This document shows, in pieces, positions 4,989 through 64,000 of a stretch of DNA of 64,000 nt; position 1 is the first letter of the stretch, and every line of letters begins with the position of its first letter. The notes beneath the pieces are model-generated. The model was not told where the DNA came from, did not search any database, and was given only the letters and a program-made list of their open reading frames with translations. The position numbers were made by a program, and so were the translations under genes. The DNA comes from Anolis carolinensis. Taxonomy: Eukaryota. The DNA is taken from assembly GCF_035594765.1 (NCBI RefSeq), contig NW_026943823.1:1550001-1614000 (forward strand), in the 5' to 3' direction.

Positions 4989-5139
4989 ACATCGGTTCAG
5001 CGACCTGTGTTACCTGTGAGCGGATTCCAATACTATCCATCATCATACAGTGGGATGGAAGTGGTTGGAAACCGGTTGTTCAATGGGACCTTGAAATTGC
5101 CTCCAAACATTGCTCTGTCATACAGCTGCTATCATAAAC

Positions 5140-5935
5140 TCGGAAGTTGCTTAACGGGATCGATATTGCCTCCAAACATTACTCGGACGTACGGATACTA
5201 TCGGGAACTCGGAAGTTGCTTAACGGGATCGATATTTCCTCCAAACATCGCTCCGCCGTACAACTATTTTCGGAAACTCGGAAGCTGCTAAACGGGATCG
5301 ATATTGCCTCCAAACATTGCTCCACTGTACGGCTACTATCGGGAACTCGGAAGTTGCTTAACAGGATCGATATTGCCTCCAAATATCGCTCCACCTTACG
5401 TATATCGGAAACTCGGAAGTTGCTTAACGGGATCGATATTGCATCCAAACATTGCTCCACCGTACGGCTACTATCGGAAACTCAGAAGTTGCTTAACGGG
5501 ATCGACATTGCCTCCAAACATCGCTCCATCTTACGTCTATCGGAAACTCGGAAGTTGCTTAACAGGATCGATATTGCCTCCAAACATCGCTCTGCCGTAC
5601 GGGTATTTTCGGAAACTTGGAAGTTGCTTAACGGGATCGATATTGCCTCCAAACATCGCTCCACTGTACGGATACTATCAGAAACTCGGAAGTTGCTTAA
5701 CGGGATCGATATTGCCTCCAAACATCGCTCCGCTGTACGGATACTATCGGAAACGCGGAAGTTGCTTAATGGGATCGATATTGCCTCCAAACACTACTTC
5801 ACCCTATGACAACTATCAGAAACTCGGAAGCTGCTTAACGGGATATTTCCTCCAAACATCGCTCCACCGTACGGATACTATCGGGAACTTGGAAGTTGCT
5901 TAACGGGATCGATATTGCCTCCAAACATCGCTCGG
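5140..5935. repeat. Minisatellite, 69-bp unit (66-bp variants), ~11-12 copies
   Basis: aacgggatcgatattgcctccaaacatcgctcc...cggaagttgctt repeats; ORF track shows a 23-aa periodicity. Confidence 0.95.
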
Positions 5936-7277: not shown

Positions 7278-7550
7278 TGGGTTGCTGTGAGTTTTTTGGG
7301 CTGCCTGGCCATGTTCCAGAAGCATTCTCTCCTGACGCTTCACCCACATCTATGGCAGGCATCCACAGGTTGTGAGGTCTGTTGGAAACTAGGCAAGTGG
7401 GGTTATATATATCTGTGGAATCTCCAGGGTGAAAGAACTTTATAGTCTGTTGGAGGCAAGTGTGAATGTTAAAATTCATTAGCACTGAATGGCATTGCAG
7501 CTTCAAAGCTTGGCTGCTTCCTGTCTGGAGGAATCCTGGGTTGGGAGGCA
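7278..7550 (-). mobile_element. Penelope-like element 3'/pLTR fragment with a degenerate hammerhead
   Basis: Reverse complement of the ...ggatgcctgccatagatgtggg...ggaacatggcc...cacagcaaccc family also seen at 9830, 45340 and 61150. Confidence 0.7.
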
Positions 7551-8705: not shown

Positions 8706-12913
<4,208 letters not shown>

Positions 12914-23600: not shown

Positions 23601-25389
23601 CCTTTGTGATCAACAAAAACATAACCATCAAAGCGATCCCTGAACAGAACTATGTCTTCTTGGTTTTTAAAGTTGATGTATGCTCTGGAAAACATGTGAG
23701 GGTACAAACTGCAGAAGGACAGAAAATGGCAATGTATAAGGAAACGTCGCTGAGTGATGACTGTAAATATACAAAAACACAAGACGGGTGTAAAACTGAA
23801 AGACATAAATGACATGCCACCGTTACATGCAATACAACTAAAGGTTGAAAGGTCCTCTCACCTGGTGTCGTTAGCAAAGAACTCAAAATAGTCGTGTTCT
23901 GGCAAAGGCTGGAGATGTTCTTCAAGCTGCTCCTTAGTTAAGCTGGGAGGGAGGCGTCGAATCACCACCTGCAAGAGGAAGTGTCCATTTTTACAAACAT
24001 CTGCACCTGTCAAATACATTGTTGCAAATACAGTAGAGTCTCACTTATCCAAGCTAAACGGGCCGGCAGAACCTTGGATAAGCGAATATCTTGGATAATA
24101 AAGAGGGATTAAAGAAACGCCTAGAATCATAGAATAGTAGAGTTGGAAGAGGCCTATTAAACATCAAATTAGGTTATGATTTTGCAAATTAAGCACCAAA
24201 ACATCATGTTATGGACAGAAAAAGTAGTTCAATACGCAGTAATGTTATGTTGTAATTACTGTATTTACGAATTTAGCACCAAAAGATCACAATGTATTGA
24301 AAACATTGAGTAAAAAAATGCGTTGGATAATCCAGAATGTTGGATATATGAGACTCTACTGTATATTGCAATATTATTAGTAATATTACATGTAATATTA
24401 TCTATATATATATAAGAGTGATGGCATCAGGGCAGCGGACAAAACAACAAAACTACAGGCCCCCCAACCTCGAAATTTGACAACACAACCCATCATTCAT
24501 GGCTCTAGGTTGATACAACAACAAAAAAAAGAAAAATAAAGTCCTAATTACAGGAAGAGGAATAATAGTTTTTATCCAATTGCTGCCAGTTTGAAGGCTA
24601 AGCTCCGCCCACTTGGTCTCCTAGCAACCTCCTCAGCCCAGGGGACAGGCACAGTTAGGCCTCTTTCACAGATTATCTGATTTTAACTGGATTATATGGC
24701 TGTCTAGACTCAAGGCCCTTCCACACAGCTATATAACCCATTTAGAATCTTATATTATCTGCTTTGAACTGGATTATCTTGACTCCACACTGCCATATAA
24801 TCCACTTCAGTGTGCATACTAAACATAAAGATAACCATACAACAGACATTTAATACCAGCACTACCTCAACAATTTCTCACCACCACCAGACAACGCCAC
24901 AGCAACGCGTGGCCGGGCACAGCTAGTATAATATATAATTAACATTATATGCATATACGTATGTATTGACAACATTGAGTACAAAAGTGCATTGGATAAT
25001 CCAGAACCTTGGATAAGCGAGTCTTGGATAAGTGAGACTCTACTGTAGTAATGTAATGCTTATATTGTGCTATGCTCATAATATATTGTATGTACATTTG
25101 ATTTGTAAGCCGCTCTGAGTCCCCTCCGGGGTGAGAAGAGCGGGATATAAATGTAGTAAATAAATAAATCACATTCAAAGCACCCCTGACAGATGGCCAG
25201 CCCGCCTCTGCTTACACGCCTCTCCTCTTCCCCATCTCCCCGCTGCGCCCTGACCTTGCTGAGGAGCTCCTTCTTGTCGCGGGGCCTGTCTCCGGGCCTG
25301 TCGGGCTCTCCTCCGGCCTTGGCGTCCGCGCCGCCGCCCACCGCCATCCGCTTCTCCTTGGGCCTCGCGTTCTCCTTGCCTTCCTTCAT
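16565..25389 (-). CDS. UPF3B: Regulator of nonsense transcripts 3B (~472 aa); exons 25255-25389, 23862-23968, 23602-23708, 22229-22327, 21878-21988, 20947-20990, 20434-20622, 19776-19957, 18196-18493, 16565-16711
   Basis: RRM-like VVIRRLPPSLTKEQL, RAYINFKNQEDIVLFRDRFDGYVF, IVEFAPFQK, KKTTPLL and the EJC-binding DRIRNKDRPAMQLYQPGARSR. Exons sum to 1419 nt in frame. Intron 3 needs a GC donor; the exon-8 donor is the least certain boundary. Confidence 0.96.
16894..17307 (+). mobile_element. R4/Dong-clade non-LTR retrotransposon 3' fragment (restriction-like endonuclease), in (TAA)n
   Basis: Translates HNTPDITVV..IINIAIPGD..EKLSRYQDLKIELQRLW..VVPVVMGTLGA; flanked by TAA repeats. Confidence 0.8.
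24031..24361. mobile_element. Tc1/mariner MITE
   Basis: TIRs and TA flanks. Confidence 0.8.
24401..24926 (+). mobile_element. Non-autonomous Helitron
   Basis: A|TCTATATATA ... GCCACagcaacgcGTGGC cgggcacagCTAG|T. Confidence 0.8.
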
Positions 25390-25786: not shown

Positions 25787-27538
25787 ATGTGGTACGAGAT
25801 CCTTCCGAGCCTGGGCGTGATGTACGTCTGCCTCAACATCCCGGGCATCTCCACCATGATCATCCAGAAGTACACCAACGGAAACAAGGTCAGCCCGGCT
25901 CCCTGGGTCGCCCCGGCAACCCTGAGGCAATTCTGGGGCGGTTGGGTTGAGGGAGGGAGGTAGGCCCAGGGCATCAGCATAATCCTAGTGGTAGTCATAA
26001 TCAGGGATAGAAATAAATACATAATAATAATAATAATAATAGGATACTAACACATCTATATATATATAAAAGGGTAATGAAATTTCGGCCTAGGACAAAA
26101 CAACAAAACTACACATCCCAGAAACACTAAACTTGGCAGCACAACCCCTCATCCATGCCTCTACGTTCATACAACAAAAAGAAAAGAAATATAAAGTCCT
26201 AATTACAGGGAGATAAATAATTGTTTTTATCCAATTGCTGCCAGTTAGAAGGCTAAGCTCTGCCCACTTGGTCTCCTAGCAACCCACTCAGCCCTGGGGA
26301 CAGGCAGAGTTAGACCTCCCTTAGGCCTCTTCCACACTGCCTATAAAATTCGGATTATCAGATTTTAACTGGATTATATGGCAGTGTAGACTCAAGGCCC
26401 TTCCACACAGCTATATAACCCGTTTATAATCTTATATTATCTGCTTTGAACTGGATTATCTTGACTCCGCACTGCCATATAATCTACTTCAGTGTGCATT
26501 TTATCCAGCTGTGTAGAAGGGGCCTCATATAATCCAGTTCTAAGCAGATAATAAAGGATTATAAATATACAGTACAGTCTCACTTATCCAACATAAACAC
26601 CCCGGCAGAACGTTGGATAAGTGAATATGTTGGATAATAAGAAGGGATTCAGGAAAAGCCGATTAAACATCAAATTAGGTAATAATTATACAAATTAAGC
26701 ACCAAAACATCGTGTTATACAACAAATTTGACAGAAAAAGTAGTTGCATGCACAGTAATATTATGTAGTAATTACTGTATTTACGAATTTAGCACCCAAA
26801 TATCACGATATATAGAAAACATTGACTACAAAAATGGCTTGGATAATCCAGAAGCTTGGATAAGCGAGTCTTGGATAAGTGAGACTCTACTGTATGTGTT
26901 ATCCCTTGACACGTTTTCCCTACTCATTTCTGTGGCCCAGGAGAAGCGCATTGCCCGGACCACCTACCAGTGGCACCTGATGGAAAGAGACAGGCGGGTT
27001 TCTGGAACTGACCGCTACTTCGAGTCCAAGGTAAGTAATGAAAAGATTAAAATGCCACATGTTTGCCTTGGTCACAGAGAGGAGTTCCTGATTTGAAATG
27101 GCTATTTCCTGTTTAATTGTACAGTCTTTACTTTGAAAGGAGTTGTGTTGCCAATTATGTTTGTTTGGGACTCTATGAGATTCATTGAAAAACTAGAGCG
27201 AAACGTGCTGCAGGACGTCCCTTCTGCAAAGACAACTTTTTCTGCACTTTAATATACTTTTCCCATGTTTTTATGATAGAACCAATTAGGAAATGACATT
27301 TATAACCCAGGAACAAAAATTGCATTGCATAGTGTTATAGAATGCCTTGCTGTTTGATTGTAAAATCAGAATGTTACTCTAGGAGTGAGATTAAGGAACG
27401 TAATATCTTGGAAGATTTCAGTTGCTAAACCTGGTTGTATAATTTCACTTGAGAGTAGCAGCGTTATGAATGTTGTAACAGACTGGCATATTTTGTCATA
27501 TTTTTTTTATTTTTCAGGGCTTGGAGAATATTGATTAA
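25787..27538 (+). CDS. NDUFA1: NADH:ubiquinone oxidoreductase subunit A1 (70 aa); exons 25787-25888, 26941-27030, 27518-27538
   Basis: [34 protein letters not shown]|[30 protein letters not shown]|GLENID*; GT-AG introns. Confidence 0.97.
26055..26892 (+). mobile_element. Helitron 5' portion (26055-26569) followed by a Tc1/mariner MITE (26570-26892)
   Basis: TC start and body shared with the other Helitron copies; MITE TIRs. Confidence 0.75.
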
Positions 27539-31800: not shown

Positions 31801-32548
31801 TTTTGTAACACCAGAATTTACACTAAAGTGTAAACAATTTCCCAATAAACCCATTACAAAGCTTCAACACGTAACTTACACAAACAGCACTACTTTAGGG
31901 CAGTCTTTGTCGGGCGGAAGCCATGTATAATTCGCCTCTTTGGTTTTCAAGTTGGTGTTGGAATGAGTGACTGCGACATCCGGTCGTCCAAAACACTGCA
32001 AAAGGGGAAACACCCATTGAGTTCTTGTGTCTTTTAAAACAAGGTTCAGATCTGTCGCTTTTCTTGGGTCGGGCAGAAATATTGGCCAATGATAGCACTG
32101 AGCCATACCGATTTAATTAACCGGTATATCATCTCTTAATTGAATCAATCGTATTTACAGAGGTTATGCTCGGATCCTTTTGCTTTAAGCTCAGGTGGTT
32201 GGAGGCAACCGTCAGATCAGGATGAAGATATTCAGGGACTTGGACTATAATGGCTCTTACCTCTAATAGTCTGGTGTTGTTGGGAGGAGTTTGCCATGAA
32301 CCCAATGCAACCGGGGAACCAAATGTCCGGGCCTCCAGCAGCACGCCTCTGTATTCGGACCCGGTGATCTGAACTGGAGAAAGATGATGATAATGATGAT
32401 GATGATAATAATAATAATAATAATAATACATAATAATAATAATACATCACACAGTCCTAGACACTTGGGAAGTGTTCGACTTGTGGTTTTGTGAAACGAA
32501 ATCCAGCATGACTATCTTGTGTGCTGTGTCATACAACATCGTTGTGTC

Positions 32549-32591
<43 letters not shown>

Positions 32592-32920
32592 TTACTGTAT
32601 TGGAATATGTATGTGTGTGTGTGTGTGTATGTTTCATGGAAAGGCAGGAAATTAAAGTTTGATTGAAAAGCTGTGGACATATCAAGAATCATTTCATCCC
32701 TAACTATACATATATAAGTATGTGTATACACACACACACATACTGTATTGGATATATATATATACACACACACACACACATATATACACACATATGTATG
32801 GAAGAGGGAGTGTCAATGTTTGAACAACTGTCGACATATCAAGAATAACTTCATTGTGTCCCTAACCATACACACACTATTTTCTCTCTTTCTTTCTCTC
32901 TATGTGTATGTGTGTGTGTG

Positions 32921-32952
<32 letters not shown>

Positions 32953-33844
32953 TATACATACATACACACACTCTATTCTCTCTGTCTTTCTATACATACA
33001 CATATGTATATACATATATATATACATATGCATATATACACACAAACTATATCCTCTGTGTGTGTATACACACACACTNNNNNNNNNNNNNNNNNNNNNN
33101 NNNNNNNNNNNNNNNNNNNNNNNNNNNNNNNNNNNNNNNNNNNNNNNNNNNNNNNNNNNNNNNNNNNNNNNNNNNNNNNNNNNNNNNNNNNNNNNNNNNN
33201 NNNNNNNNNNNNNNNNNNNNNNNNNNNNNNNNNNNNNNNNNNNNNNNNNNNNNNNNNNNNNNNNNNNNTGTGTGTGAATAGAAAAGGTAAAGGTTTCTCC
33301 TGACGTTAAGTCCAGTCGTGACCGACTCTGGGGGTTGGTGCTCATCTCCATTTCTAAGCCGAAGAGCCGGCGTTGTCCGTAGACATCTTCAAGGTCATGT
33401 GGCCATTGGCATGACTGCATGGAGCGCCGTTACCTTCCCGCTGGAGCAGTACCTATTGATCTACTCACATTGGCATGTTTTTGAACTGCTAAGTTGGCAG
33501 GAGCTGGAAATTTGGTTAATAAATTTCATGGAAGGGCAAGGAGTCAACGTTTGATCGAACAGCTGTGGACATACCAAGAATAACTTTATTTCATTGCTCT
33601 AAGAATAACAACAACGGCAAGGCAAGGAACACTTACCACTGATGGGCTGACCCTTTGAGAAAGAGGGTGCGCTGGCCAGGATCTGGAAAGGGGCCGGAGA
33701 GGTCTGGGGCTGGGTCCCCGGGTGCAAAGGCAACATGTTTCCGCAGGCCGAGGAAGGTGCGCCGTCGGGAAAGGCGTGATGCGAACCGAGTCTGGTCCAA
33801 AGGACCGAGAATCCAAAAAGAAGGGAGAGATTCCGCAGAGACAT
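28254..33844 (-). CDS. Stand-alone reeler-domain protein (198 aa) with signal peptide and GPI-type C-terminus; exons 33637-33844, 32261-32373, 31880-31995, 30660-30724, 28254-28348
   Basis: All introns GT-AG, phases consistent, 597 nt in total. Reeler motifs FPDGAPSSACGNMLPLH, YRGVLLEART, LGSW, C..VAVTHS..K, YTWLPP, FVATVAQSYDVYW; hydrophobic tail GVMVFSLFLSLLG. Confidence 0.88.
29243..29701 (-). mobile_element. Non-autonomous Helitron
   Basis: CTAG plus hairpin at 29243, TC at 29701 on the minus strand. Confidence 0.8.
29746..30321 (+). mobile_element. Non-autonomous Helitron
   Basis: A|TC ... GC hairpin ... CTAG|T. Confidence 0.8.
30367..30545 (+). mobile_element. LINE reverse-transcriptase fragment (probably Vingi/Ingi-like)
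   Basis: FIYADDRAITTQ...NPSKTQTCAFH: YADD catalytic motif and NPSKT motif. Confidence 0.7.
31014..31336. mobile_element. Tc1/mariner MITE, 323 bp
   Basis: TIRs of the same family. Confidence 0.8.
31337..31600 (+). mobile_element. hAT (Charlie / OposCharlie1-like) non-autonomous fragment
   Basis: CAGGGGTCCCCAAACTTTTTAAGCAGGGGGCC ... aacaaattcctatgcatactgcacatgtcttattt; right boundary approximate. Confidence 0.6.
33079..33268. other. Assembly gap (N run) inside (CA/TA)n microsatellite
   Basis: Run of N. Confidence 1.
33281..33507 (-). mobile_element. Sauria SINE (partial)
   Basis: aaaaggtaaaggttt tail and the conserved core, as at 1666. Confidence 0.8.
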
Positions 33845-34183
33845 GATCCCCAGAGAAGAGCTCAGAAGCCAGAATGAATCCCGTGAGTTTGGAGAGAAAA
33901 CTTTGAAACAAAAGGGTTCACAGACCCGTAACAGAAGCATTTCCAGCCCACATCACATGTCCTTTACGCCGGAGATTGTGGTTATTCTTATAGTTTCAAC
34001 ATAAGTGAAATAAATGGATTTTTGGGGAATAAACCAAGCTTGCAGGACTTTCTCTGCTTCAAAAGATACCTTTTTCCAAACTTACATGTTTGTTATCTTG
34101 CTACGGTACTCCCCCCACAATGATTTATAGTTCACCAAGAGACTTCAAGCAAATAATATGATTTTATGAATACTTCACAACCT

Positions 34184-35124
34184 CTGAGGTGCCTGACGTG
34201 GATGTGGGTGAAACGTCAGGAAAGAATGCTGCTGGAACATGGCCATACACTGAGGATGCCTGCCATAGATGTGGGTGAAATGTCAGGAGAAAATGCTTCT
34301 GGAACATGGTCATACACTGAGGATGCCTGTCATAGATGTGGGCGAAACGTCAGGAGAGAATGCTTCTGGAACATGGCCATACGCTGAGGATGCCTGCCAT
34401 AGATGTGGGTGAAACGTCAGAAGAGAATGCTTCTGGAACATGGCTATACACTGAGGATGCCTGCCATAGATGTGGGTGAAACGTCAGGAGAGAATGCTGC
34501 TGGAACATGGCTGTACACTGAGGATGCCTGCCATAGATGTGGCTGAAACGTCAGGAGAGAATGCTGCTGGAACATGGCCATACACTGAGGATGCCTGCCA
34601 TAGATGTGGGTGAAACGTCAGGAGAAAATGCCGCTGGAACATGGCTGTACACTGAGGATGCCTGCCATAGATGTGGGTGAAAAGTCAGGAGAGAATGCTG
34701 CTGGAACATGGCCATACACTGAGGATGCCTGCCATAGGTGTGGCCGAAACGTCAGGAAAGGATGCTGCTGGAGCATGGCCATACACTGAGGATGCCTGCC
34801 ATAGATGTGGGTGAAATATCAGGAGAGAATGCTGCTGGAACATGGCCATACACTGAGGATGCCTGCCATAGATGTGGGTGAAACGTCAGGAGAAAATGCC
34901 GCTGGAACATGGCTGTACACTGAGGATGCCTGCCATAGATGTGGGTGAAAAGTCAGGAGAGAATGCTGCTGGAACATGGCCATACACTGAGGATGCCTGC
35001 CATAGGTGTGGCCGAAACGTCAGGAAAGGATGCTGCTGGAGCATGGCCATACACTGAGGATGCCTGCCATAGATGTGGGTGAAATATCAGGAGAGAATGC
35101 TGCTGGAACATGGCCATACACTGA
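34184..35124 (+). repeat. Tandem array of 14 x 67 bp derived from a Penelope-like element; each unit carries hammerhead core boxes
   Basis: ctgagg(a) starts at 34184, 34250, 34317, 34384, 34451, 34518, 34585, 34652, 34719, 34786, 34853, 34920, 34987 and 35054; the last eight units are two copies of a 268-bp block. Confidence 0.95.
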
Positions 35125-35158
35125 TTCCTTATCCAAAGTGTATAAACTTTTTCTAATA

Positions 35159-35466
35159 CAGTAGAGTCTCACTTATCCAAGCTAAACGGGCCGGCAGAAG
35201 CTTGGATAAGTGAATATCTTGGATAATAAGGAGGGATTAAGGAAAAGCCTATTAAACATCAAATTAGGTTATGATTTTACAAATGAAGCACCAAAACATC
35301 ATGTTATACAACAAATTTGACAGAAAAAGTAGTTCAATATGCAGTAATGTTATGTTGTAATTACTGTATTTACGAATTTAGCACCAAAATATCACGATAC
35401 ATTGAAAACATTGACTACAAAAATGGCTTGGATAATCCAGAAGCTTGGATGAGTGAGACTCTACTG
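35159..35466. mobile_element. Tc1/mariner MITE
   Basis: TIRs and TA flanks. Confidence 0.8.
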
Positions 35467-35854
35467 TATATGCATCAAAATGTAACTTGAAGACAGCTAC
35501 CTCTCTATGTCCCGGGTTGCATAATCCATTAGGAAAGGGAACCATGGCCAAGATCCCTCCAGCCATTTCCCAAGACAGATAACTCCCTGAACCATTGCGT
35601 ATATATGCAGATAAATCAGGCATGGTCAAACTTTGGCCCTTGATTTCAAGTGTATACTGAGAGTGCAGTGTATATCTTTTGTTTAGGAACCGAAGCAGTA
35701 ATAATTCTCTTAAAAAAAGAAGAGCGTGCCCTCTTTCGCTCTTTCTGCAAGACAATCCACCACGAAAGAACTAGATTTAGCGTGGAAATGGATTGGAGCA
35801 GAAAGCCAGATTTCCTGTCACAAGCAGCAGAAGGAAAAGAGAGGAGATGAAATA

Positions 35855-38024: not shown

Positions 38025-39741
38025 AGGTCTAGAGGAACTCAGACGTTCATGTTAGGTCCCACCAACCTCTCTGCAAGGTCTGCAGAAACTCAGACGTTCA
38101 TGTTAGGTCCCATCAACTTGTCTGCAAGCTCTAAAGAAACTTAGATTTTCATGTTAGGTCCCATCAACGTGTCTGCAAGGTCTAGAGAAACTCAGACGTT
38201 CATGTTCAGTCCCAGCAATCTCTTTGCAAGGTCTAGAGAAACTCAGACGTTCATGTTAGGTCCTATCAACTTGTCTGCAAGCTCTAAAGAAACTTAGATT
38301 TTCATGTTAGGTCCCATCAACGTGTCTGCAAGGTCTAGAGAAACTCAGACGTTCATGTTCAGTCCCAGCAATCTCTTTGCAAGCTCTAGAGAAACTCAGA
38401 CATTCATGTTAGGTCCCATCAACCTGTCTGCAAGGTTGGAGAAACTTAGATGTTCATGTTAGGTCTCATCAACGTGTCTGCAAGGTCTAGAGAAACTCAG
38501 ACGTTCATGTTCAGTCCCAGCAATCTCTTTGCAAGGTCTGGAGAAACTCAGACATTCATGTTAGGTCCCACCAACCTGTCTGCAAGGTCTAGAGAAACTC
38601 AGACATTCATGTTAGGTCCCATCAACGTGTCTGCAAGGTCTAGAGAAACTTAGATGTTCATGTTAGGTCCCACCAACCTGTCTGCAAGGTCTAGAGAAAC
38701 TCGGACGTTCATGTTAGGTCCCATCAACGTGTCTGCAAGGTCTAGAGAAACTTAGATGTTCATGTTAGGTCCCACCAACCTGTTTGCAAGGTCTAGAGAA
38801 ACTCGGACGTTCATGTTAGGTCCCACCAACCTGTCTGCAAGGTCTAGAGAAACTCAGACATTCATGTTAGGTCCCATCAACGTGTCTGCAAGGTCTAGAG
38901 AAACTTAGATGTTCATGTTAGGTCCCACCAACCTGTCTGCAAGGTCTAGAGAAACTCGGACGTTCATGTTAGGTCCTATCAATGTGTCTACAAGGTCTAG
39001 AGAAACTCGGACGTTCATGTTAGGTCCCATCAACGTGTCTGCAAGGTCTAGAGAAACTTAGATTTTCATGTTAGGTCCCACCAACCTGTCTGCAAGGTCT
39101 AGAGAAACTCAGACGTTCATTTCAGGTCCCATCAACCTGTCTTCAAGGTCTAGAGAAACCCAGACGTTCATGTTAGGTCCCATCAACGTGTCTGCAAGGT
39201 CTAGAGAAACTCAGACGTTCATGTTCAGTCCCAGCAATCTCTTTGCAAGCTCTAGAGAAACTCAGACATTCATGTTAGGTCCCATCAACCTGTCTGCAAG
39301 GTTGGAGAAACTTAGATGTTCATGTTAGGTCTCATCAACGTGTCTGCAAGGTCTAGAGAAACTCAGACGTTCATGTTCAGTCCCAGCAATCTCTTTGCAA
39401 GGTCTGGAGAAACTCAGACATTCATGTTAGGTCCCATCAACATGTCTTCAAGGTCTAGAGAAACTCAGACGTTCATGTTAGGTCCCTCCAACTTGTCTGC
39501 AAGGTCTGGAGAAACTCAGATGTTCATGTCAGGTCCCATCAACCTGTCTTCAAGGTCTAGAGAAACCCAGACGTTCATGTTCAGTCCCACCAACTTGTCT
39601 GCAAGGTCTAGAGAAACTCGGACGTTCACGTTAGGTCTCACCAACTTGTCTGCAAGCTCTAGAGAAACTCAGATGTTCATGTTAGGTCCCATCAACCTAT
39701 CTTCAAGGTCTGGAGAAACTCAGACGTTCATGTTAGGTCCC
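38025..39741. repeat. Minisatellite, 51-bp unit, ~33 copies
   Basis: aggtctagagaaactcagacgttcatgttaggtcccatcaacctgtctgca repeats; 17-aa periodicity in the ORF track. Confidence 0.95.
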
Positions 39742-39863
39742 AGGAACACATCTGCTTCATGAACCAAAGTATACCTGTACATCTAAATTACTTAGCCGTC
39801 AGATTTCCCCGGTGCTTCTGATGCCATGTAATGTATTTTTTCCTCTTTCTAAGAGCGTGAACA

Positions 39864-42800
39864 ATGGACTTGGACAATGAAGACCAAGATGTGGAGGACA
39901 CGAACGAAGAGCTGGAGGCCCTCAAGGAGGAAGCTCTCCTCCTCGTTGACAAAGTGATTAAAGGGGCAACGGACACCGTTAGAGACCTGAAGAAGAAAGA
40001 AGAAGGTGCGGCAAGACAATCTTTGCTGTGTTTCTGGAGCCTTTTTGTTGAGTGTGCTGATATTTACGCTATGGATTTCTCTCCTCAGCTGCAGCTGCCA
40101 AATACAAAATACCCAACATCCAGTGGATGGAGTGCAGAGACTTCACTGTAGGAAAAGGGCTGCTGCAGATCGAGGAATATATGAGAGTAAGGTATCTTTA
40201 GCTATCAATTGGTATAATTAGGACAAAAACGGAGTCCGGATGTACACAAATGACACCGAGTCCTTGATGGAGTACTTCCTCATTCTTCCACACACTGCTG
40301 GAAGGTTTTGTGGTGTCGTAAATTAGTTAAATTAGCCTCCCTGAATAAAGCGGTACCTAAATTTCCTACTCGACAGATGCAACTGTCTTTCGGGCTGCAT
40401 AGTTCAACAGCAAGCTAGACTATTAATGGTCGGGAGCTTACTCCAACCTAGGCTTGCCTTGAACTCATGACCTCTCGGTCAGTAGTGATTTATTACAGCT
40501 GGCTACTAACCAGCTGCGCCCCAGCCTGGTCCTAATGTTTGCTTCTCATGGACTTGGCACAGGGATTTGGTTAACCCAGTGGTTCCCAAACTTATTTGGA
40601 CTGCCGCCCCCTTTCCAGAAAAAATATGACTCAGCACCCCCTGGAATGGAGGTGTGGCTTAGAGGGGTGGGCGTGGCTCCTGCTCAAGAGGGCGGGGCTG
40701 AGCCTCTCCCCAGTCCAAGACGGGAGGGGGAGGGGGAGGTGGGCGGGGCCACAAATGGGCGGCCAGGACTGGGATGGGCGGAGTTACGAGCTCTGAGGCA
40801 GGGCTGAGCTTCTATCCCTGTCCTGGATGCAGGGGGCGGGGCTAGAGGAGAGGGTGGGGCCTCTAGACCCCACGTCCGTGTTCTAACAATTGCCTCAGGG
40901 GAGGTATACAGAGGCTCTTGGGAAGAGGCCCCGCCTCTAGCCCCGCCTTTTAGTCCTCTCCTCTCAGGAGAGTTATAGAGGCTCAGCCCTGTCTCAGGCT
41001 CTTGGAAGGAGGCCCCGCCCCCTGTGTCCCAACAAGCGCCTCAGGAGAGGTATAGACTCTCAGCCCTGTCTCGGGCTCTTGGGAAGAAGCCACACCCACT
41101 CCTCTAGCCCCGCCCTTTAGTCCTAAAAGGCCTCTCAGGAGAGATATAGAGGCTCAGCCCTATCTCAGGCTCTTGGAAGGAGGCCCCACCCCCTTCCCTA
41201 GCTCCGCCCTGTGTCCCAACAAGTGCCTCAGGAGAGGTATAGACTCTCAGCCCTGTCATGGGTTCTTGGGAAGAAGCCACACCCACTCCTCTAGCCCCAC
41301 CCTTTAGTCCTAAAAGGCCTATCAGGAGAAGTATAGAGGCTCAGCCCTGTCTCGTGCTCTTAGGAGGAGGCCCCGCCCCCTTCCCTAGCTCCGCCCTGTG
41401 TCTCAACAAGCGCCTCAGGAGAGGTATAGATGCTCAGCCCTGTCTCAGATTCTTGGGAAGAAGCCACGCCCACTCCTCTAGCCCCGCCCTTTAGTCCTAA
41501 AAGGCCTCTCAGGGGAGATATAGAGGCTCAGCCCTATCTCAGGTTCTTGGAAGGAGGCCCCGCCCCCTTCCCTAGCCCCGCCCTCTGTGTCCCAACAAGA
41601 GCCTCAGGAGAGGTATAGATGCTCAGCCCTGTCTCGGGCTCTTGGGAAGAAGCCACGCCCACTCTAGCCCTGCCCTTTAGTCCTAAAAGGCCTCTCAGGG
41701 GAGATATAGAGGCTCAGCCCTATCTCAGGCTCTTGGAAGGAGGCCCCGCCCCCTTCCCTAGCTCCGCCCTCTGTGTCCTAACAAGGGGAGGTATAGATGC
41801 TCAGCCCTGTCTCAGGCTCTTGGGAAGAAGCCACGCCCACTCCTCTAGCCCCGCCCTTTAGTCCTAAAAGGCCTCTCAGGGGAGATATAGAGGCTCAGCC
41901 CTATCTCAGGTTCTTGGAAGGAGGCCCCGCCCCCTTCCCTAGCCCCGCCCTCTGTGTCCCAACAAGAGCCTCAGGAGAGGTATAGATGCTCAGCCCTGTC
42001 TCGGGCTCTTGGGAAGAAGCCACGCCCACTCTAGCCCTGCCCTTTAGTCCTAAAAGGCCTCTCAGGGGAGATATAGAGGCTCAGCCCTATCTCAGGCTCT
42101 TGGAAGGAGGCCCCGCCCCCTTCCCTAGCTCCGCCCTCTGTGTCCTAACAAGGGGAGGTATAGATGCTCAGCCCTGTCTCAGGCTCTTGGGAAGAAGCCA
42201 CGCCCACTCCTCTAGCCCCGCCCTTTAGTCCTAAAAGGCCTCTCAGGGGAGATATAGAGGCTCAGCCCTATCTCAGGTTCTTGGAAGGAGGCCCCGCCCC
42301 CTTCCCTAGCCCCGCCCTCTGTGTCCCAACAAGAGCCTCAGGAGAGGTATAGATGCTCAGCCCTGTCTCGGGCTCTTGGGAAGAAGCCACGCCCACTCTA
42401 GCCCTGCCCTTTAGTCCTAAAAGGCCTCTCAGGGGAGATATAGAGGCTCAGCCCTATCTCAGGCTCTTGGAAGGAGGCCCCGCCCCCTTCCCTAGCTCCG
42501 CCCTCTGTGTCCTAACAAGGGGAGGTATAGATGCTCAGCCCTGTCTCAGGCTCTTGGGAAGAAGCCACGCCCACTCCTCTAGCCCCGCCCTTTAGTCCTA
42601 AAAGGCCTCTCAGGGGAGATATAGAGGCTCAGCCCTATCTCAGGCTCTTGGAAGGAGGCCCCGCCCCCTTCCCTAGCTCCGCCCTCTGTGTCCTAACAAG
42701 GGGAGGTATAGATGCTCAGCCCTGTCTCAGGCTCTTGGGAAGAAGCCACGCCCACTCCTCTAGCCCCGCCCTTTAGTCCTAAAAGGCCTCTTAGGGGAGA

Positions 42801-44555
42801 TGTAGAGGCTCAGCCCTGTCTCCGGCACTTGGTTTCTTCACTCCACAGACGTGGGAGCTCCACGAAAGCTGGCTGCACTGGATCAACTACCTCAGCGAGG
42901 AAGAGCTCGAGTACAGCACGCGGTACCACTACCGGGTGCGGTGGAGCATCCCCACGTGCCGCAAGCCCATCCCGCGAGCCACGGCCTGCGTCTTCTTCAT
43001 CCTCGAGATTTCCAAAGTCAGGCCTGATGTAAGTGTTCCGCTTCCCAGAGTCACATCCCTTTCGTTCTTTACGGCACAGCATTTAACGACGTCTTCTTTT
43101 CCATTTGCAACAGACTTTGCCCATCGAAGTATACTTTGTGGTGGAGACAAACAAGCTCATTCACAGGTATGTTCACAGGTATTGTGGGAGTTGGGAGTCC
43201 AAAACACCTGGAGGGTCGAAGTTTGACCATGCCAGCGTTAGACGGCCAGCTCTCTCTATCTCTCAGTGCCGATATCTGAATATTTCGAATTCCAAATTCC
43301 AGTTCTGAATATTTCAAATTCCATGAAATACTTACCGTATATACTTGAGTATAAGCTGACCCGAATATAAGCCGAGGCTCCTAATATTACCGCAAAAAAA
43401 CTGGGAAAACATTGACTCCAGTATAAGCTGAGATACCAATAAAATTACCGTATATACTTGAGTATAAGCCGACCCGAATATAAGCCGAGGCACCTAATTT
43501 TACCACAAAAAAACTGGGAAAACATTGACTCCAGTATAAGCCGAGAATGGTAAATTTCAGAAATAAAAATAGATACCAATAAAATTACATGAATTGAGGC
43601 ATTGGTAGGTTCAATGTTTTTGAATATTTACAGAAAGCTCAAATTTAAGATAAGACTGTCCAACTCTAATCAAATCATTATTCTCATCTTCTTCAATGTA
43701 AATGGGCTTATGTATCCTTTTTAATAATAATAAAGTAAAACAATACATGTAATAATAATAATAATAATAATAAATAATACAGGAAAATAATACATGGATA
43801 ATAAATAGAGTAAAATAATAAATATAATAATAATATCAGAGTGAAATAATAAATGTATGAATAATAATAAGATCAAAGTGAAATAATAAATGTATTAATA
43901 ATAATAATAAAAATAGAGTAAAATAAATGTAACAGTAGCAACAATAGAGAAAAATAATAAATGTAATAATACCAATAATAATAGAGAAAAATAATACATG
44001 TAATAACAAAAATAATAAATAATATGGGAAAATAATACATGTAGTAATAAATAGAGTAAAATAATAAATATAATAATAATTAGATCAGAGTGAAATAATA
44101 AATGTATAATAAGATCAGAGTGAAATAATAAATGAATGAATAATAATATGATCAGAGTGAAATAATAAATGTATGAATAATAATAAGATCAAAGTGAAAT
44201 AATAAATGTATTAATAATAGAGTAAAATAAATGTAATAGTAGCAACAATAATAGAGAAAAATAATAAATATAATAATACCAATAATAATAGAGAAAAATA
44301 ATAAATGTACCATATAATCTCGAGTATAAACTGACCCAAATATAAGCCAACCAGGACCCTCATCCGAGTATAAGCTGAGGGGGGCTTTTTCAGTCTTATA
44401 AAAAAGGGCTGAAAAACTAGGCTTATACTCGAGTATATACAGTATTCTCTCTGCTATTTGTCCTTTACAGGCCGGTAGAATCTCGATTTAAAGAAAAATG
44501 GCTCAAAGACGTCATTGAGAGCAAAACTTGCCTGATGGAGATGATCAACTTTTAG
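39864..44555 (+). CDS. AKAP14: A-kinase anchoring protein 14 (~185 aa); exons 39864-40005, 40089-40186, 42849-43028, 43114-43166, 44471-44555
   Basis: Amphipathic helix EALLLVDKVIKGA, NIQWMECRDFTVGKGLLQIEEY, VRWSIPT, LIHRP..RFKEKWLK; GT-AG introns, 558 nt; sits between NDUFA1 and NKAP as in human. An alternative acceptor at 40095 would keep the frame. Confidence 0.92.
40310..40532 (-). mobile_element. tRNA-derived SINE
   Basis: Minus-strand head ggcgcagctggttagtag (A-box-like) ... gagttcaag (B-box-like). Confidence 0.6.
40577..42822. repeat. hAT-type 5' end (CAGTGGTTCCCAAAC at 40577) followed by a GC-rich array of ~92-bp monomers with a 367-bp higher-order repeat
   Basis: Identical ORFs recur at 41430/41797/42164 and 41619/41986/42353 (367-bp spacing). 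Confidence 0.9.
43335..44442. mobile_element. Tc2/pogo-like MITE with a duplicated 5' end and expanded AT-rich interior
   Basis: TA|CCGTATATACTTGAGTATAAGC ... GCTTATACTCGAGTATATACAG|TA; second 5' end near 43448. Confidence 0.75.
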
Positions 44556-44924: not shown

Positions 44925-45768
44925 ACAGAAAGAAGAAAATCAGGAAAATGAACAAAATCTGGTCACAAGTATTTAAAAAAACCAAAAATCAGGATAGTAA
45001 ATAAAGAACACCACTAAGAAAACAGGCAAATTCAAGACAGAAAGAAAGAAGAAAATCAGGAAAATGAACAAAATCTGGTCATAAGTATTTAAAAAAAACC
45101 AAAAATCAGGATAGTAAATAAAGAACACCACTAAGAAAACAGGCAAATTCAAGACAGGAAACAATCAGGGCTAGGTAACACCTCCCAACAAAGGATTCCC
45201 CCCCAGACAAGAAGCAGCCAGGCTTTGAAGCTGAAAGGCTATTCAATGCTAATCAAGGTGGCCAATTGCAATTCACACTTGCCTCAAACAGACAAGAGTT
45301 CTCTTTCCCACCCTACAGATATATAAACCCCACTTGCCTAGTTTCCAACAGACTCACAACCTCTGAGGATGCCTGCCATAGATGTGGACGAAACATCAGG
45401 AGAGAATGCTTCTGGAACATGGCCAGACAGCCCGGAAAACTCACAACAACCCAAAGGTCAGAAATATATACATTACTGTCCTAGTTTCCAACAGACTCAC
45501 AACCTCTGAGGATGCCTGCCATAGATGTGGGCGAAACGTCAGGAGAGAATGCTTCTGGAACATGGCCAGACAGCCCGGAAAACTCACAGCAACCCAAAGG
45601 TCAGAAATATATACATTACTGTCCTAGTTTCCAACAGACTCACAACCTCTGAGGATGCCTGCCACAGATGTGGGCAAAACGTCAGAAGAGAATGCTTCTG
45701 GAACATGGCCAGACAGCTCAGAAAACTCACAGCAACCTAGTGATTCTGGCCATGAAAGCCTTCGACGA
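44925..45768 (+). mobile_element. Penelope-like fragment with three tandem 143-bp pLTR units; intact hammerhead motif at 45503-45543
   Basis: cct-ctgagga...gaaacgtc-agg is intact in the middle unit; units 1 and 3 are mutated; 3' end ggccatgaaagccttcgac. Confidence 0.75.
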
Positions 45769-56949: not shown

Positions 56950-57700
56950 TTCCAGTTCAAGGCAGGCAACCCGGATTATATGGTAGTGTAGACTCAGATC
57001 ATCCAGTTCAAGGTGGATAATCTGGATTATATGGCAGTGTAGATTCATATCGCCAAATTCATGGCAGGTAATCTGGATTATATAGCAGTGCAGACTCATA
57101 TCATCCAGTTCAAGGAAACTAATCTGGATTATATGGAAGTGTAGATTCATATAATTCAGTTCAAGGCAGGCAACCCGGATTATATGGTAGTGTAGACTCA
57201 GATCATCCAGTTCAAGGAGGATAATCTGGGTTATATGGCAGTGTAGACTCATATTATCCAGTTCAAAGCAGGCAATCTGGATTATATGGCAGTGTAGACT
57301 CTTATAATCTAGTTCAAAGCAAATAATCAGGATTATATGGCAGTGTAGACTCATATTGTCCAGTTCAAGGCACGTAGTCTGGATTATATGGTAGTGTAAA
57401 CTCAGGGCCTTTCTACACTGTCATATGAACTGGATTACTAACTCAGATCATCCACATTATCTGCTTTGATCTGGGTTATATGAGTCTGCACTGCCATCTC
57501 ATCCAGTTCAAAGCAGATCATCTGTATTACATGGCATTGTAGACCCAGGGCCCTTCTACTCTGCCATATAATCCAGATTATCAAAGCAGATTATCCATAT
57601 GCTGTGCTTTGAACTAGATTATATGAGTCTACACTGTCATCCCATCCAGTTCAAAGCTGATCATCTGGGTTTTTATTCAGCAGTCAAAGGGATCTCATAA
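56950..57700. repeat. 51-bp tandem units and MITE fragments of the ggattatatggcagtgtaga family (probably PIF/Harbinger-derived)
   Basis: atccagttcaa...ggattatatggcagtgtagactc repeats ~9 times; the same motif occurs near 51250, 53350, 54110 and 55050 and inside Helitron copies. Confidence 0.7.
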
Positions 57701-60229: not shown

Positions 60230-60753
60230 AACGATCAGAAATGGAAATGTGTCTTTTTAAAATATACATAAAAAAGCAAAGTTAAAAAAAAATATCCCCA
60301 CAACTCCTTAAATGGGCTGCTCGGAAAAAAAAGTTGTAGAACATCTCATGTTATGTAACAAAGTCTGTGTGTTTTATACCTAGCCAGCAAAAAGGTAGTG
60401 TTTTAAAAGTAGAATACCTGTGATGTTTTGGGTGACCTTGTGAAAGATGCTTGGACGGAAGGGAAACACCTTTATTTGAGTACAGGCAAAGTTGTTTAGG
60501 AAATTACACACTCGGAGCACTTAGCTCATCGGTATCAATCCGGATCTGGAACGTTTTTGTTTGGAAAAGCATTGTTTCTTCCCAACCACAACAAAATGTA
60601 GAATAATGGGAATATTGCCACCTGAAACACTTACTATGTATTCCCTTCTTTCATATTAGCACTTTAAAGCAGAAAGTCCTTTCATCATTAAGGCTTGAGA
60701 CTGCAAAAGGGCAGTCGGGATAGGTTTTTAAAAAATATAAATCAATACGGTAT

Positions 60754-61470
60754 TTGGGTTGCTGTGAATTTTCCGGGCTGTATGGCCATGTTCCAGAAGC
60801 ATTCTTTCCAGACGTTTCACCCACATCTATGGTAGGCATCTTCAGAGATTGTGGGGTCTGTTGGAAACTAGGCAAGAGGGGTTTATTATATATCTGTGGG
60901 AGAAAGTTGCAATTAGTCACCTTGATTAGCATTGGATAGCCTTGCAGCTGCAAGCCTGGCTGCTTCCTACTTGGGGAAATCCTTTGTTAGCTGGTCCTGA
61001 TTGTTTCCTGTCTGGAATTCCCCTGTTTTCAGAGTGTTGTTCTTTATTTACTGACCTGATTTTAGTTTTTAAAAAAAATACTGGTAGCCAGATTTTGTTC
61101 ATTTTCATGGTTTCCTCCTTAATGTTGAAATTGTGGATTTCAATGGAATATGAAACAATCAGGGCCAGCTAACAGCAACAGAGGATTCCCCCAGGCTGGA
61201 AGCAGCCAGGTCTTGAAGCTGCAAGGCATTTCAATGCCAATCAGAGTGATTAATTGCAACATTCACACCTGCCTCGAACAGACAAGAGTTCTTTCTCCCA
61301 CCCTGGACATTATTCCAGATATATAAATTCCACTTGCCTAGTTTCCAATATACCTCTGAGGTTGCCTGCCATAGAAACATCAGGAGAGAATGCTTCTGGA
61401 ACAAGGCCATACAGCTCAGAAAACTCACAGCAACCCAGTGATTCTGGCCACGAAAGCCTTCGACAACACA
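60754..61470. mobile_element. Inverted pair of Penelope-like fragments (60754-61130 minus, 61153-61470 plus)
   Basis: Mutually complementary segments, e.g. gggttgctgtgaatttt and aaaactcacagcaaccc. Confidence 0.75.
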
Positions 61471-64000
61471 ATAAGGTAGCTTAGCTCAGTGCGGGTCCAA
61501 CAGTCTTATTCACAAATCCCATTATTTTTTGGGGAACGCACCCTAATTCCATTTTTTTCTGCCTAAAAACACTCAAGGTGAATGTGAGCCATCCTGGGGA
61601 AGAAGTGAGATCCTCTGAATGGGGGGAACTCGGAAGTTTTATTTATATTTGGTCTTGAAATTTATCCGGTGGCTGGACCATCTTTTGACGTTCTGTCAGT
61701 CGAAAGTCCAAGTGATGCTGATGGAAGAACAACCTTTTGTTTTTTCTGATACTGAGGAATTATGTTGGACCTTCTTTTCTACTGAAAATACCTTGATGTC
61801 TTGGATTAAGTAGCTGTTTTGCCTTTTTTTTCTTGTTGCTTCTTATGGGGAAAAGTGGTGACAGATAGAGTTGTGCAGGTTCTTAAGGACATAGAAGCTG
61901 CTTCAGAAATGATGTTTTTGGTTTCAGAACCTATTTCAGGAATCAAGTTCACACACTTGAACATCTTTTGGTCAGTTTATGGCATCCACATTTCATTCCT
62001 TCGGTGGTCTGCTTCCCTTGCAGATTGATACACATGTTATATAATGTTTGGGTAAAAGCACGAGCAAGAAATACTCACCCTGAACATTCAATTATCATGT
62101 AGTCTTGTTGCTTTGTCAAGTATTCCCAATTGTGTAAGTTATAATACAGGGAATATTGAAGCAAACCCTCTAAGGACTCTCACGATTAGATCACATCAGT
62201 GGCATGTAATTACATTTTTTCCCCATATTTTGGGAATATTTTTAGTTTTCATTGCTGTTTTCCCAAGTAAGCCTCTGTTTCATATTGAAAAGAATAATCC
62301 CTGGACCTTTTTAAAAGTCAGTTCAAAAGTCAATGTTTTGTTGGAGTAAACGACTGATCTGTATCAAGCCGTGGGAATCAGTGCGTGTAATAACAAGACG
62401 AAGAAAAATGACGTGATGTTGATGTAAAACACAGCTCTTCTTGTTCTTTAGGCCGAGACTAAACTTGTTTAGAGGTGGAGTTTATGAAAGTAGTTTTGTA
62501 AACCATGTTTTGAAACGGGCACTTCGTATTTAAGTGCATGGTTGGTGATTTTATTTTGGTCATGCAGTCGGGTACAAGAGGCATCCTTCACTCACGTTTT
62601 AGGAGTTTGGATCTTTACAAAAAGAACATTGGATTGAAAAAGCTGCTTTGTGCACAATGGAAACTTGCCTCTTATTGTGATCCGTGATACCTTTTGAGAT
62701 GTTAAACCAGTGCCTATTGAGACTGAATATTGCAAAGGAAGGCTGGAAGATTAGGGTTCGGAGCGGTGCAGTTTTGCACTTCCCATTCCTCTCAGGTTCC
62801 TCGTTTTGCTGAGGAAGATAGCTTCCCATATCCAAAGTTGGAAGAGTTCATATAAAGTGCATGTTTTTATGTTTTCATGAAATCCTTGCTTCCAAAATAT
62901 TCTGGGGCTGGAAAGAAGCTGGGTCCCCTTTGCATCCCGCCATTGCAAACCCATTGCGTGCTGTTCCTTTTTATTATGAGGATTTCTCCAAACCATAATA
63001 ATGTCAAGCTCACCTTTCCATAGATATGAAAATATTGCCTCCTGGAAGACCATATTCTCAGGATGCTGCTCTGACTAAAATGTACTTTGGAGAGAAATGT
63101 TGCTTATTGCAATTTTTGCAAATTTGCACCAACCCAGAACTCAAGTGTGTTCTGCAGCGTTCGTTTTGGTATCCATTGCAGTCCTTCCACCTGGAAGAAC
63201 TTCTTTCCTGCTTGTAATGCTCTTTTTTTGTGCTGGTTTCCTTCATATTGGGAGAGAAAAGCCTCTTTTGCGACTGCAGACTAAAGGGATTACAGTCCAG
63301 AATGGTCTCACTTCATATTGTATCACGTTTGCAAACAGCGCTTATAGTCCTAAAGCCAACGTCTTGGGGAAGGAGTCTTGTTCAACTTCTCTTTAATTCC
63401 TTTCTTTTTAAAGAATTCACATCACGGCATTCCATTGTATGGCTATAAAACACAACAAAACCCCGATGCATTGCGTATTTATTTCCTATCGAAGCATATT
63501 AACAAAAAAGATGCAAAGGTGGTTTTGTAGCTCAGTGGGTTTTACTGAGCTGTATTTTTTTGGAGGAGGAGGAGGAAAAAGAAATCCAAACAGTACTGTA
63601 ATGTATATATATATAACTTGTACAGTCTTTTCCTTAACCTACGTTTTTGGGAATTGTGTTTCCTTTTAACTAATACTTGACCTATAGTTCTTAGAGCTTT
63701 GTATGGCGAAAATAAAACAAGCTTTTAATTCTACCAAAGTGACGTTGGTTATTTTGAGAAACAAATGGTGCCTCTTCTGCTTGGGATTTTATCAGATATG
63801 GATCTGGCTTATAGTCTTGCACATATGCATCTTCTGCCTTCTGTAAAGAGGCAATTACTCTGAGTGGTAAACAAGACTCTGTTCTAATATGTATACGCAT
63901 TGAAGCGTATAGGGGTGATTGCGTGGTGCTAAGACACCCAAGCCTTGGAACAATTTTTTTAAAAGTAACTTGCAGCATTTTTGTCATAGTTCTTACTGTT

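Follow-up and report, generated by a model that had tools for sequence, protein, structure and literature searches.

A tandem array of hammerhead-bearing units upstream of a reeler gene in Anolis carolinensis is very probably a dead minisatellite derived from a Penelope-like element

The 67-bp tandem array upstream of a reeler gene in Anolis carolinensis is very probably a catalytically dead, transposon-derived minisatellite, likely expanded by slippage or unequal exchange. It lies in a window of 64,000 nucleotides (assembly GCF_035594765.1, contig NW_026943823.1, positions 1,550,001 to 1,614,000), to which all coordinates below refer. Judged by its letters, the array unit corresponds to nt -6 to +61 of Poseidon_Ac (PAc), a Penelope-like retroelement (PLE) of this lizard, and the hammerhead boxes owe their presence to the fragment that was copied rather than to any use by the array. 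The preliminary description had left a choice between a very small retrozyme-like array and a satellite born from a ribozyme; the second part of that choice stands, as a minisatellite from the PAc pLTR-ORF junction, and the first is not supported.

TRF places the array at 34184-35124 with a period of 67, 14.1 copies, 91% matches, 0% indels and a score of 1567. Split at the start of the core, the array consists of 14 head-to-tail units, the first of 66 nt and the other 13 of 67 nt each, which bears out the array of 14 x 67 bp first described. The order within units 2-14 is CUGAGGA box, PAc start codon at A9, stem II, GAAA box, GUC site and a 32-nt spacer. The four-unit duplication of 268 bp across the last eight units was likewise found as described: units 7-10 and 11-14 have a distance of 0, and at period 268 exact identity extends over up to 306 nt, compared with 36-54 nt at five other periods tested. 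The stem III tetramers (after GAA) counted on the 14 units were the same as before (ACGU nine, AUAU two, AAGU two, AUGU one), and the replacement of CCU before the core is also seen, by ACA in 12 and ACG in one of units 2-14, as is the missing A9 in unit 1, which keeps CCU. Searched with a 38-nt core pattern, the window yields 20 matches, against zero for every one of 100 shuffles. The array and its edges comprise the following features.

34170..34183, plus strand: left remnant of the PAc pLTR, nt -20 to -7 from the ATG; 13 of 14 letters equal the consensus (by eye)
34184..34249, plus strand: unit 1 (66 nt), the sole unit with stem I; A9 missing, C>U at 11.1 and a disrupted outer pair in stem II
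34250..35120, plus strand: units 2-14 (13 x 67 nt), PAc nt -6 to +61; 5' strand of stem I changed to ACA/ACG
34585..35120, plus strand: 268-bp four-unit block, exact duplication (units 7-10 = 11-14)
35121..35128, plus strand: right end of the array, CTGA (where a 15th unit begins), then TTCC

Tandem expansion is frequent in the window, and TRF reports further minisatellites at 5096-5933 (69 bp x 12.3), 38025-39742 (51 bp x 33.7), 41015-42832 (181 bp x 9.9) and 56951-57404 (51 bp x 8.9). The hammerhead pattern occurs in none of these four.

The majority unit of the array agrees with the PAc consensus, as printed in the accessible part of Frangieh et al. 2024 (PMC11167929), in 64 of 67 letters (compared by eye, nt -6 to +61), and the majority of seven dispersed copies in the window agrees with it in 66 of 67 (by eye). 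The geometry is also as published: PAc's ORF starts from the base of stem II, the ATG lies at A9, and the cut falls 26 nt past the start codon (PMC11167929). The PAc hammerhead is itself published, and the earlier reading of the core as a Penelope-like minimal type I hammerhead was right. The array differs from PAc in that its repetition is confined to nt -6 to +61; stem I is absent, as are the RT start sites and the sequence that continues to +172. The left remnant finishes in the CCU strand of stem I and is surrounded by AT-rich DNA; its left edge would be the 5'-truncation point of a PAc insertion, and AT-rich insertion sites are reported to be preferred by PAc (PMC11167929). On the right, the array does not finish at the PAc tail or RT start site, as it ends with +61 plus CTGA, compared with about +85 or +113 to +118 in copies elsewhere. 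The TGATTC of this right end recurs in the PAc tail near +87, and this likeness of 6-7 letters suggests that the end may be a deletion joint with the tail. An autonomous PLE, that is, an RT plus GIY-YIG ORF between pLTRs, was not found as a frame at the array or beside five other copies, no ORF exceeds 20 codons per array unit, and a protein search with a 41-aa N-terminal piece of PAc, a weak test, returned nothing.

Beyond what the preliminary description contained, the window carries eight further copies of the source element, with cores at 7368 (minus), 9238 (minus), 9955 (plus), 45363 (plus), 45506 (plus), 45649 (plus), 60845 (minus) and 61356 (plus). The longer repeat around these cores reaches up to about 400 bp upstream.

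7278..7548, minus strand: PAc fragment, core decayed (core 7368)
9119..9279, minus strand: PAc fragment ending at +118, core decayed (core 9238)
9826..10046, plus strand: PAc pLTR fragment, core intact, 4-bp stem I (core 9955)
45158..45766, plus strand: PAc pLTR fragment with three cores 143 bp apart (45363, 45506, 45649), CCU kept in each
60753..61134, minus strand: PAc fragment ending at +85 (core 60845)
61152..61472, plus strand: PAc fragment that reaches +118, stem II with a 9-nt deletion (core 61356)

The copies end near +85 in five cases (a position read off the window copies) and at +113 to +118 in three, which fits the published PAc tail and RT initiation at 111-118, with an optional 30-40 bp tail between two start sites (PMC11167929). 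The joint of +61 to -6 that separates the array units is found in none of these eight copies. The last two fragments listed lie back to back in opposite orientation. In the 143-bp triplet (45337-45737) the unit comprises PAc sequence as far as +85 and a further 26 nt or so of different DNA. Of its cores, the middle one (45506) forms a flawless minimal hammerhead; the first carries ACAU and has a mismatch in stem II, and G12 is missing from the third. From its letters, this triplet is a better candidate for a cis-dimer than the 67-bp array.

We predict that the array hammerheads are dead, since units 2-14 have lost stem I at the repeat joint and unit 1 lacks A9, which belongs to the conserved hammerhead core. 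Even a double hammerhead requires pairing between the bases directly ahead of CUGA and those directly past the cut. The CUGANGA and GAAA boxes and the NUH site are together present in 13 of the 14 units, the exception being unit 1. In cores 2-14, helix I has one of three pairs, with the closing pair absent, in all 169 core/cut pairings; core 1 forms three of three stem I pairs with 12 of 13 partners, but this is the core without A9. No core/cut pairing in the array combines an intact core with stem I. Beside the cut, A stands opposite A in cores 2-14, except for unit 4, where G stands opposite A, and a mismatch at the base after the cut is given in a review, as far as accessible, as an activity loss of at least 500-fold (PMC3138052). 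The pair G10.1-C11.1 has become G-U in 11 of 14 units through a U at 11.1, a CpG position, which had escaped the preliminary description. The second stem II pair is broken in three of 14 units, and unit 3 alone has G10.1-C11.1 together with an unbroken helix II base. A palindromic helix III, with ACGU or AUAU, is retained by 11 of the 14.

Minimal type I PLE hammerheads, as characterized in the accessible text of Cervera and de la Pena 2014 (PMC4209133), have no helix III of their own, are palindromic at 15.2-16.2, conserve G10.1-C11.1, are thought to work as dimers, and show low activity even then. The array shares with them the CUGANGA and GAAA boxes, the extra base between 9 and 10.1, the long stem II and the palindromic 15.2-16.2 (PMC4209133). 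However, whereas theirs have a helix I of 4-5 bp and the conserved G10.1-C11.1, 13 of the 14 array units are without helix I and 11 have G-U. The PAc hammerhead has already been assayed and cleaved only with PAc protein; the accessible part of the same study reports no RNA-seq reads starting or ending at the PAc cut site, and there PAc insertion required ORF nt +20 to +172 (PMC11167929). Since the array unit stops at +61, both help from the PAc protein and re-insertion of units by the known route appear unlikely.

Folding did not discriminate between the array and the dispersed copies: the stem I probability was below 0.001 in all 14 array cores and also at most 0.009 in four dispersed cores, and forcing a double-hammerhead fold required 12.5-32.8 kcal/mol in 14 array pairs and 13.7-27.6 kcal/mol in the 143-bp pairs. 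Rfam named no hammerhead family in the whole window at the gathering score (one match, SNORA69) and no hammerhead in 33900-35300 at E up to 10 (one match, a hairpin of the neighbouring element). Minimal hammerheads are evidently outside the coverage of Rfam, so this blank is no evidence either way. A reading in which the units act in trans, as enzyme strands, gave scattered short target matches with no long arms and was rejected, for the window only.

Alternatively, the array could be a very small retrozyme-like system, whose transcripts double hammerheads would split into monomers or circles of 67 nt for re-insertion through PAc. The intact boxes of the 13 units and the palindromic ACGU of nine would suit such a system, tandem copies can provide the dimer partner for PLE hammerheads (PMC4209133), and the joint probably occurs at further loci while the core positions give a weak hint of conservation (see below). 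However, this explanation is extremely unlikely, as an intact core and stem I never come together in one pairing, the parent ribozyme is inactive without PAc protein, the unit lacks +62 to +172, and the ends of the array are not at the cut site. Nor does the unit length fit: although non-LTR retrozymes and newt satellite 2 share with the array the head-to-tail arrangement and the single core per unit, the accessible text of Cervera and de la Pena 2020 (PMC7229834) gives animal retrozyme repeats as 150-450 bp with complete canonical hammerheads that cleave to linear and circular monomers, whereas the array has a 67-bp unit that is a fragment of an autonomous element and holds no complete ribozyme.

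The reading as a dead minisatellite places the array beside the transposon-derived minisatellites, of which a review describes thousands in human (PMC9659126). The array is, as these are, a head-to-tail repetition of a 10-100 bp internal piece of a dispersed element. With the Alu-, MaLR- and B1-derived examples in the accessible part of that review it shares the amplification of a short internal piece of an abundant element, the unit variants and the block duplication; it differs in that its donor is a Penelope-like element and that the piece happens to carry ribozyme boxes (PMC9659126). The word Penelope is absent from the accessible text of the review, and our literature search, with subscription papers and Repbase outside its scope, found no published report of the array or of PAc-derived minisatellites. 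Penelope insertions are abundant in the species, 16,208 being tabulated in green anole populations in the accessible part of PMC7561263.

The variation among the array units fits neutral decay. Units 2-10 hold 19 distinct variants, four of them on the four CpG positions (P 0.024), and both C11.1 and the middle of ACGU are CpGs. The tetramer AUAU arises by a double CpG transition, so selection is not required; we considered it as a compensatory change and rejected this, as both substitutions are transitions of one CpG. Against neutrality, none of the 15 non-CpG variants of units 2-10 falls in the roughly 12 core positions (P 0.042), or one of 19 with unit 1 counted (P 0.10), which is a weak hint of core conservation from a post hoc test on units that are not independent.

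Contigs from sequencing runs allow the array to be compared with other sequence data. The stretch or part of it is contained in 20 of 24 listed runs (eight studies), none of the listed runs being recorded as RNA, and we aligned the contigs of four runs, X1, X3, X15 and X19. Two of the runs, X15 and X19, were taken as possible RNA, but a single X15 contig extends from the intron across the upstream sequence to the array, which looks like DNA. The A9 deletion appears in gap-free contigs that reach unit 1 from the flank, both in X3 (record 27) and in X15 (record 9), and is therefore not an assembly error. Contigs span the +61/-6 joint in all four runs and, together with those that link flank and unit 1, they show that the array is not an artefact. 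One could still assume that the array, real in itself, has ten units and that the exact 268-bp duplication was created in assembly. The 306-nt exact run at period 268 and the 339 N in assembly gaps within the window would be consistent with this, and the contigs are short and do not span the array, which puts unit number and duplication beyond their reach. However, flank, unit 1 and joints were found in four independent runs, and recent block duplications are normal in minisatellites. An assembly error of this kind is thus rather unlikely.

The same contigs suggest that the +61/-6 joint probably occurs at further loci. Contigs that match the 48-nt joint number 98 in X1, 158 in X3, 17 in X15 and 46 in X19; of 105 joint rows, the 12 listed are all ordinary element contigs aligned as two pieces. 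Among the 32 listed of 464 joint-crossing pieces, 16 of the 24 from X1, X3 and X19 have 4-5 deviating letters or a gap, compared with none of the eight from X15, and the window's own 13 junctions show 0-3 differences and no gap. The ratio of summed depth at the joint to that of the flank is 177 in X1, 229 in X3, 123 in X19 and 19 in X15, values that are too high because contigs overlap and because ordinary element contigs were placed in two pieces; joint depth amounts to 0.1-0.3% of element depth in X1, X3 and X19. For the unit itself, the summed contig depth relative to the flank is about 1e5 in these three runs, a rough figure that is not a copy number, and the loose ends of the contigs over the unit are normal PAc neighbours. 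The uniqueness of the junction to this locus, named in the preliminary description as one mark of an ordinary slippage minisatellite, did not give a clean answer, and the contigs more divergent than any window unit in three of four runs point to the joint being present elsewhere too. In metagenome contigs the junction pattern has no match, which is uninformative for a lizard. Loose ends of run contigs at 34200-34211 belong to a second abundant hammerhead-bearing repeat with the same boxes and another stem II, which is not in the array as such.

These observations allow for a dispersed origin, in which the joint arose once, as an internal 67-nt duplication of a longer PAc copy, was spread by retrotransposition or gene conversion, and then expanded at some loci, this array among them. 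Such a history, compatible with a dead local array, has in our judgment slightly less than an even chance. In its favour are the divergent pieces in three runs, and their absence among the listed pieces of X15, a run that shares six flank variants with X3; in X3 as well as X19, a junction contig runs on into one unit variant that the window does not have; and the joint has no microhomology, which would make exact independent recurrence unlikely. However, only 32 of the 464 pieces are listed and the divergent ones could come from other alleles or a longer array, the joint has a small share of the element's depth and is missing from the eight other window copies, and the array stops on its right at neither of the PAc ends (+85 or +118), which means that this copy is not an insertion left unaltered.

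For the dead minisatellite we propose the following course. The unit and the 14 nt to its left are PAc sequence. A 5'-truncated PAc pLTR fragment, from -20 onward, would have inserted into AT-rich DNA, and +61 would then have been rejoined to -6 by rearrangement, either here or in a donor copy; a local and an imported joint seem about equally likely to us. The PAc consensus has no short repeat at -6 and +61 to explain the first slip, and the CTGA at the right end is a 4-letter repeat of the unit start. The pattern among the units would reflect single-unit gains and point decay, followed by the four-unit duplication, recent enough to be exact. No cleavage would take part at any stage, as cores 2-14 are mismatched beside the cut and core 1 is without A9.

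As a dead minisatellite the array is of little importance, since its ribozyme has been described before and there are many minisatellites made of transposon scraps. It does call for caution in ribozyme scans of lizards, where PAc pieces scatter hammerhead boxes widely, tandem arrays included. If the joint were a dispersed PAc variant, it would offer a route from a PLE ribozyme to tandem repeats, perhaps the beginning of a path to retrozyme-like satellites, and a naturally occurring cis-dimer that bears on the in vivo role of PLE hammerheads. We also considered a PAc sub-lineage with a 67-nt internal duplication of the hammerhead that seeds core minisatellites at many loci, the present array being one that expanded and whose otherwise competent core is without A9. 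This is improbable; in such elements the first core would keep stem I and the second unit would give the palindromic helix III partner and the GUC in cis, so that cleavage within a single molecule might become possible for a ribozyme which otherwise requires a dimer and protein. The sole lead worth a genome search is a two-unit PAc variant with an intact first core elsewhere.

The neighbouring reeler gene is read from three minus-strand exons that match Pfam PF02014 in order, of which only the third passes the cut-off alone.

33637..33844, minus strand: reeler exon 1 (ATG 33844, donor GT 33636); PF02014 1-34, E 0.024
32261..32371, minus strand: reeler exon 2 (limits approximate); PF02014 45-78, E 0.036
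31879..32004, minus strand: reeler exon 3 (limits approximate); PF02014 81-118, E 0.00015, 22.8 bits, cut-off 21

The distance of about 340 bp given earlier is correct, as the ATG at 33844 lies 340 bp from the array, on the opposite strand. This position raises a further possibility, that the ribozyme is dead while the number of units tunes the reeler gene, Penelope pLTRs being able to carry promoter parts. Promoters are typical of pLTRs in the accessible text of PMC6765202, and unit 1 with the left flank is seen in X3 and X15 and the joint in all four runs. However, position is the only argument for such a role and for the promoter zone assumed in the preliminary description; the unit is the start of the ORF, downstream of most of the pLTR; PAc is so dense, with nine sites per 64 kb including the array, that one near a gene start is expected; and the unit variation is consistent with neutral decay. 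We regard a regulatory tandem repeat as quite improbable.

The reeler gene (31879-33844, minus) lies just beyond NDUFA1 (exon at 25787, plus; PF15879) and a UPF3-family gene (23861-25389, minus; PF03467), and the SNORA69 match is to its left at 10535-10670 (minus). The human RPL39-UPF3B-NDUFA1 block is not known to contain a reeler gene at this place. At 33640-34152, the flank deviates from the window at the same six points in X3 and X15 and at three in X1, two of these shared; the allelic divergence of the reeler 5' region is about 1% (X1, X3 and X15 against the window). Between the gene and the array, the short piece at 34113-34165 is moderately repeated (depth 147-212, compared with 10.8, in X1) and contains TATAAA at 34129-34124 (minus strand), a putative TATA motif; a further TATA-like hexamer lies at 33992-33987. 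A repeat in reeler intron 1 (33280-33510, plus), which we take to resemble a Sauria SINE, contains 11 letters complementary to the helix III arm, seemingly a coincidence. On the other side, 36 bp right of the array, 35157-35468 is a high-copy element with terminal inverted repeats and more than 20 occurrences in the window, presumably a MITE. Pfam named no family for an acidic coding exon of a plus-strand gene at 39861-40151 (best DUF4715, E 0.15), for which 35919 is a possible donor; if the first exon of that gene ends there, the array would lie between two divergent gene starts.
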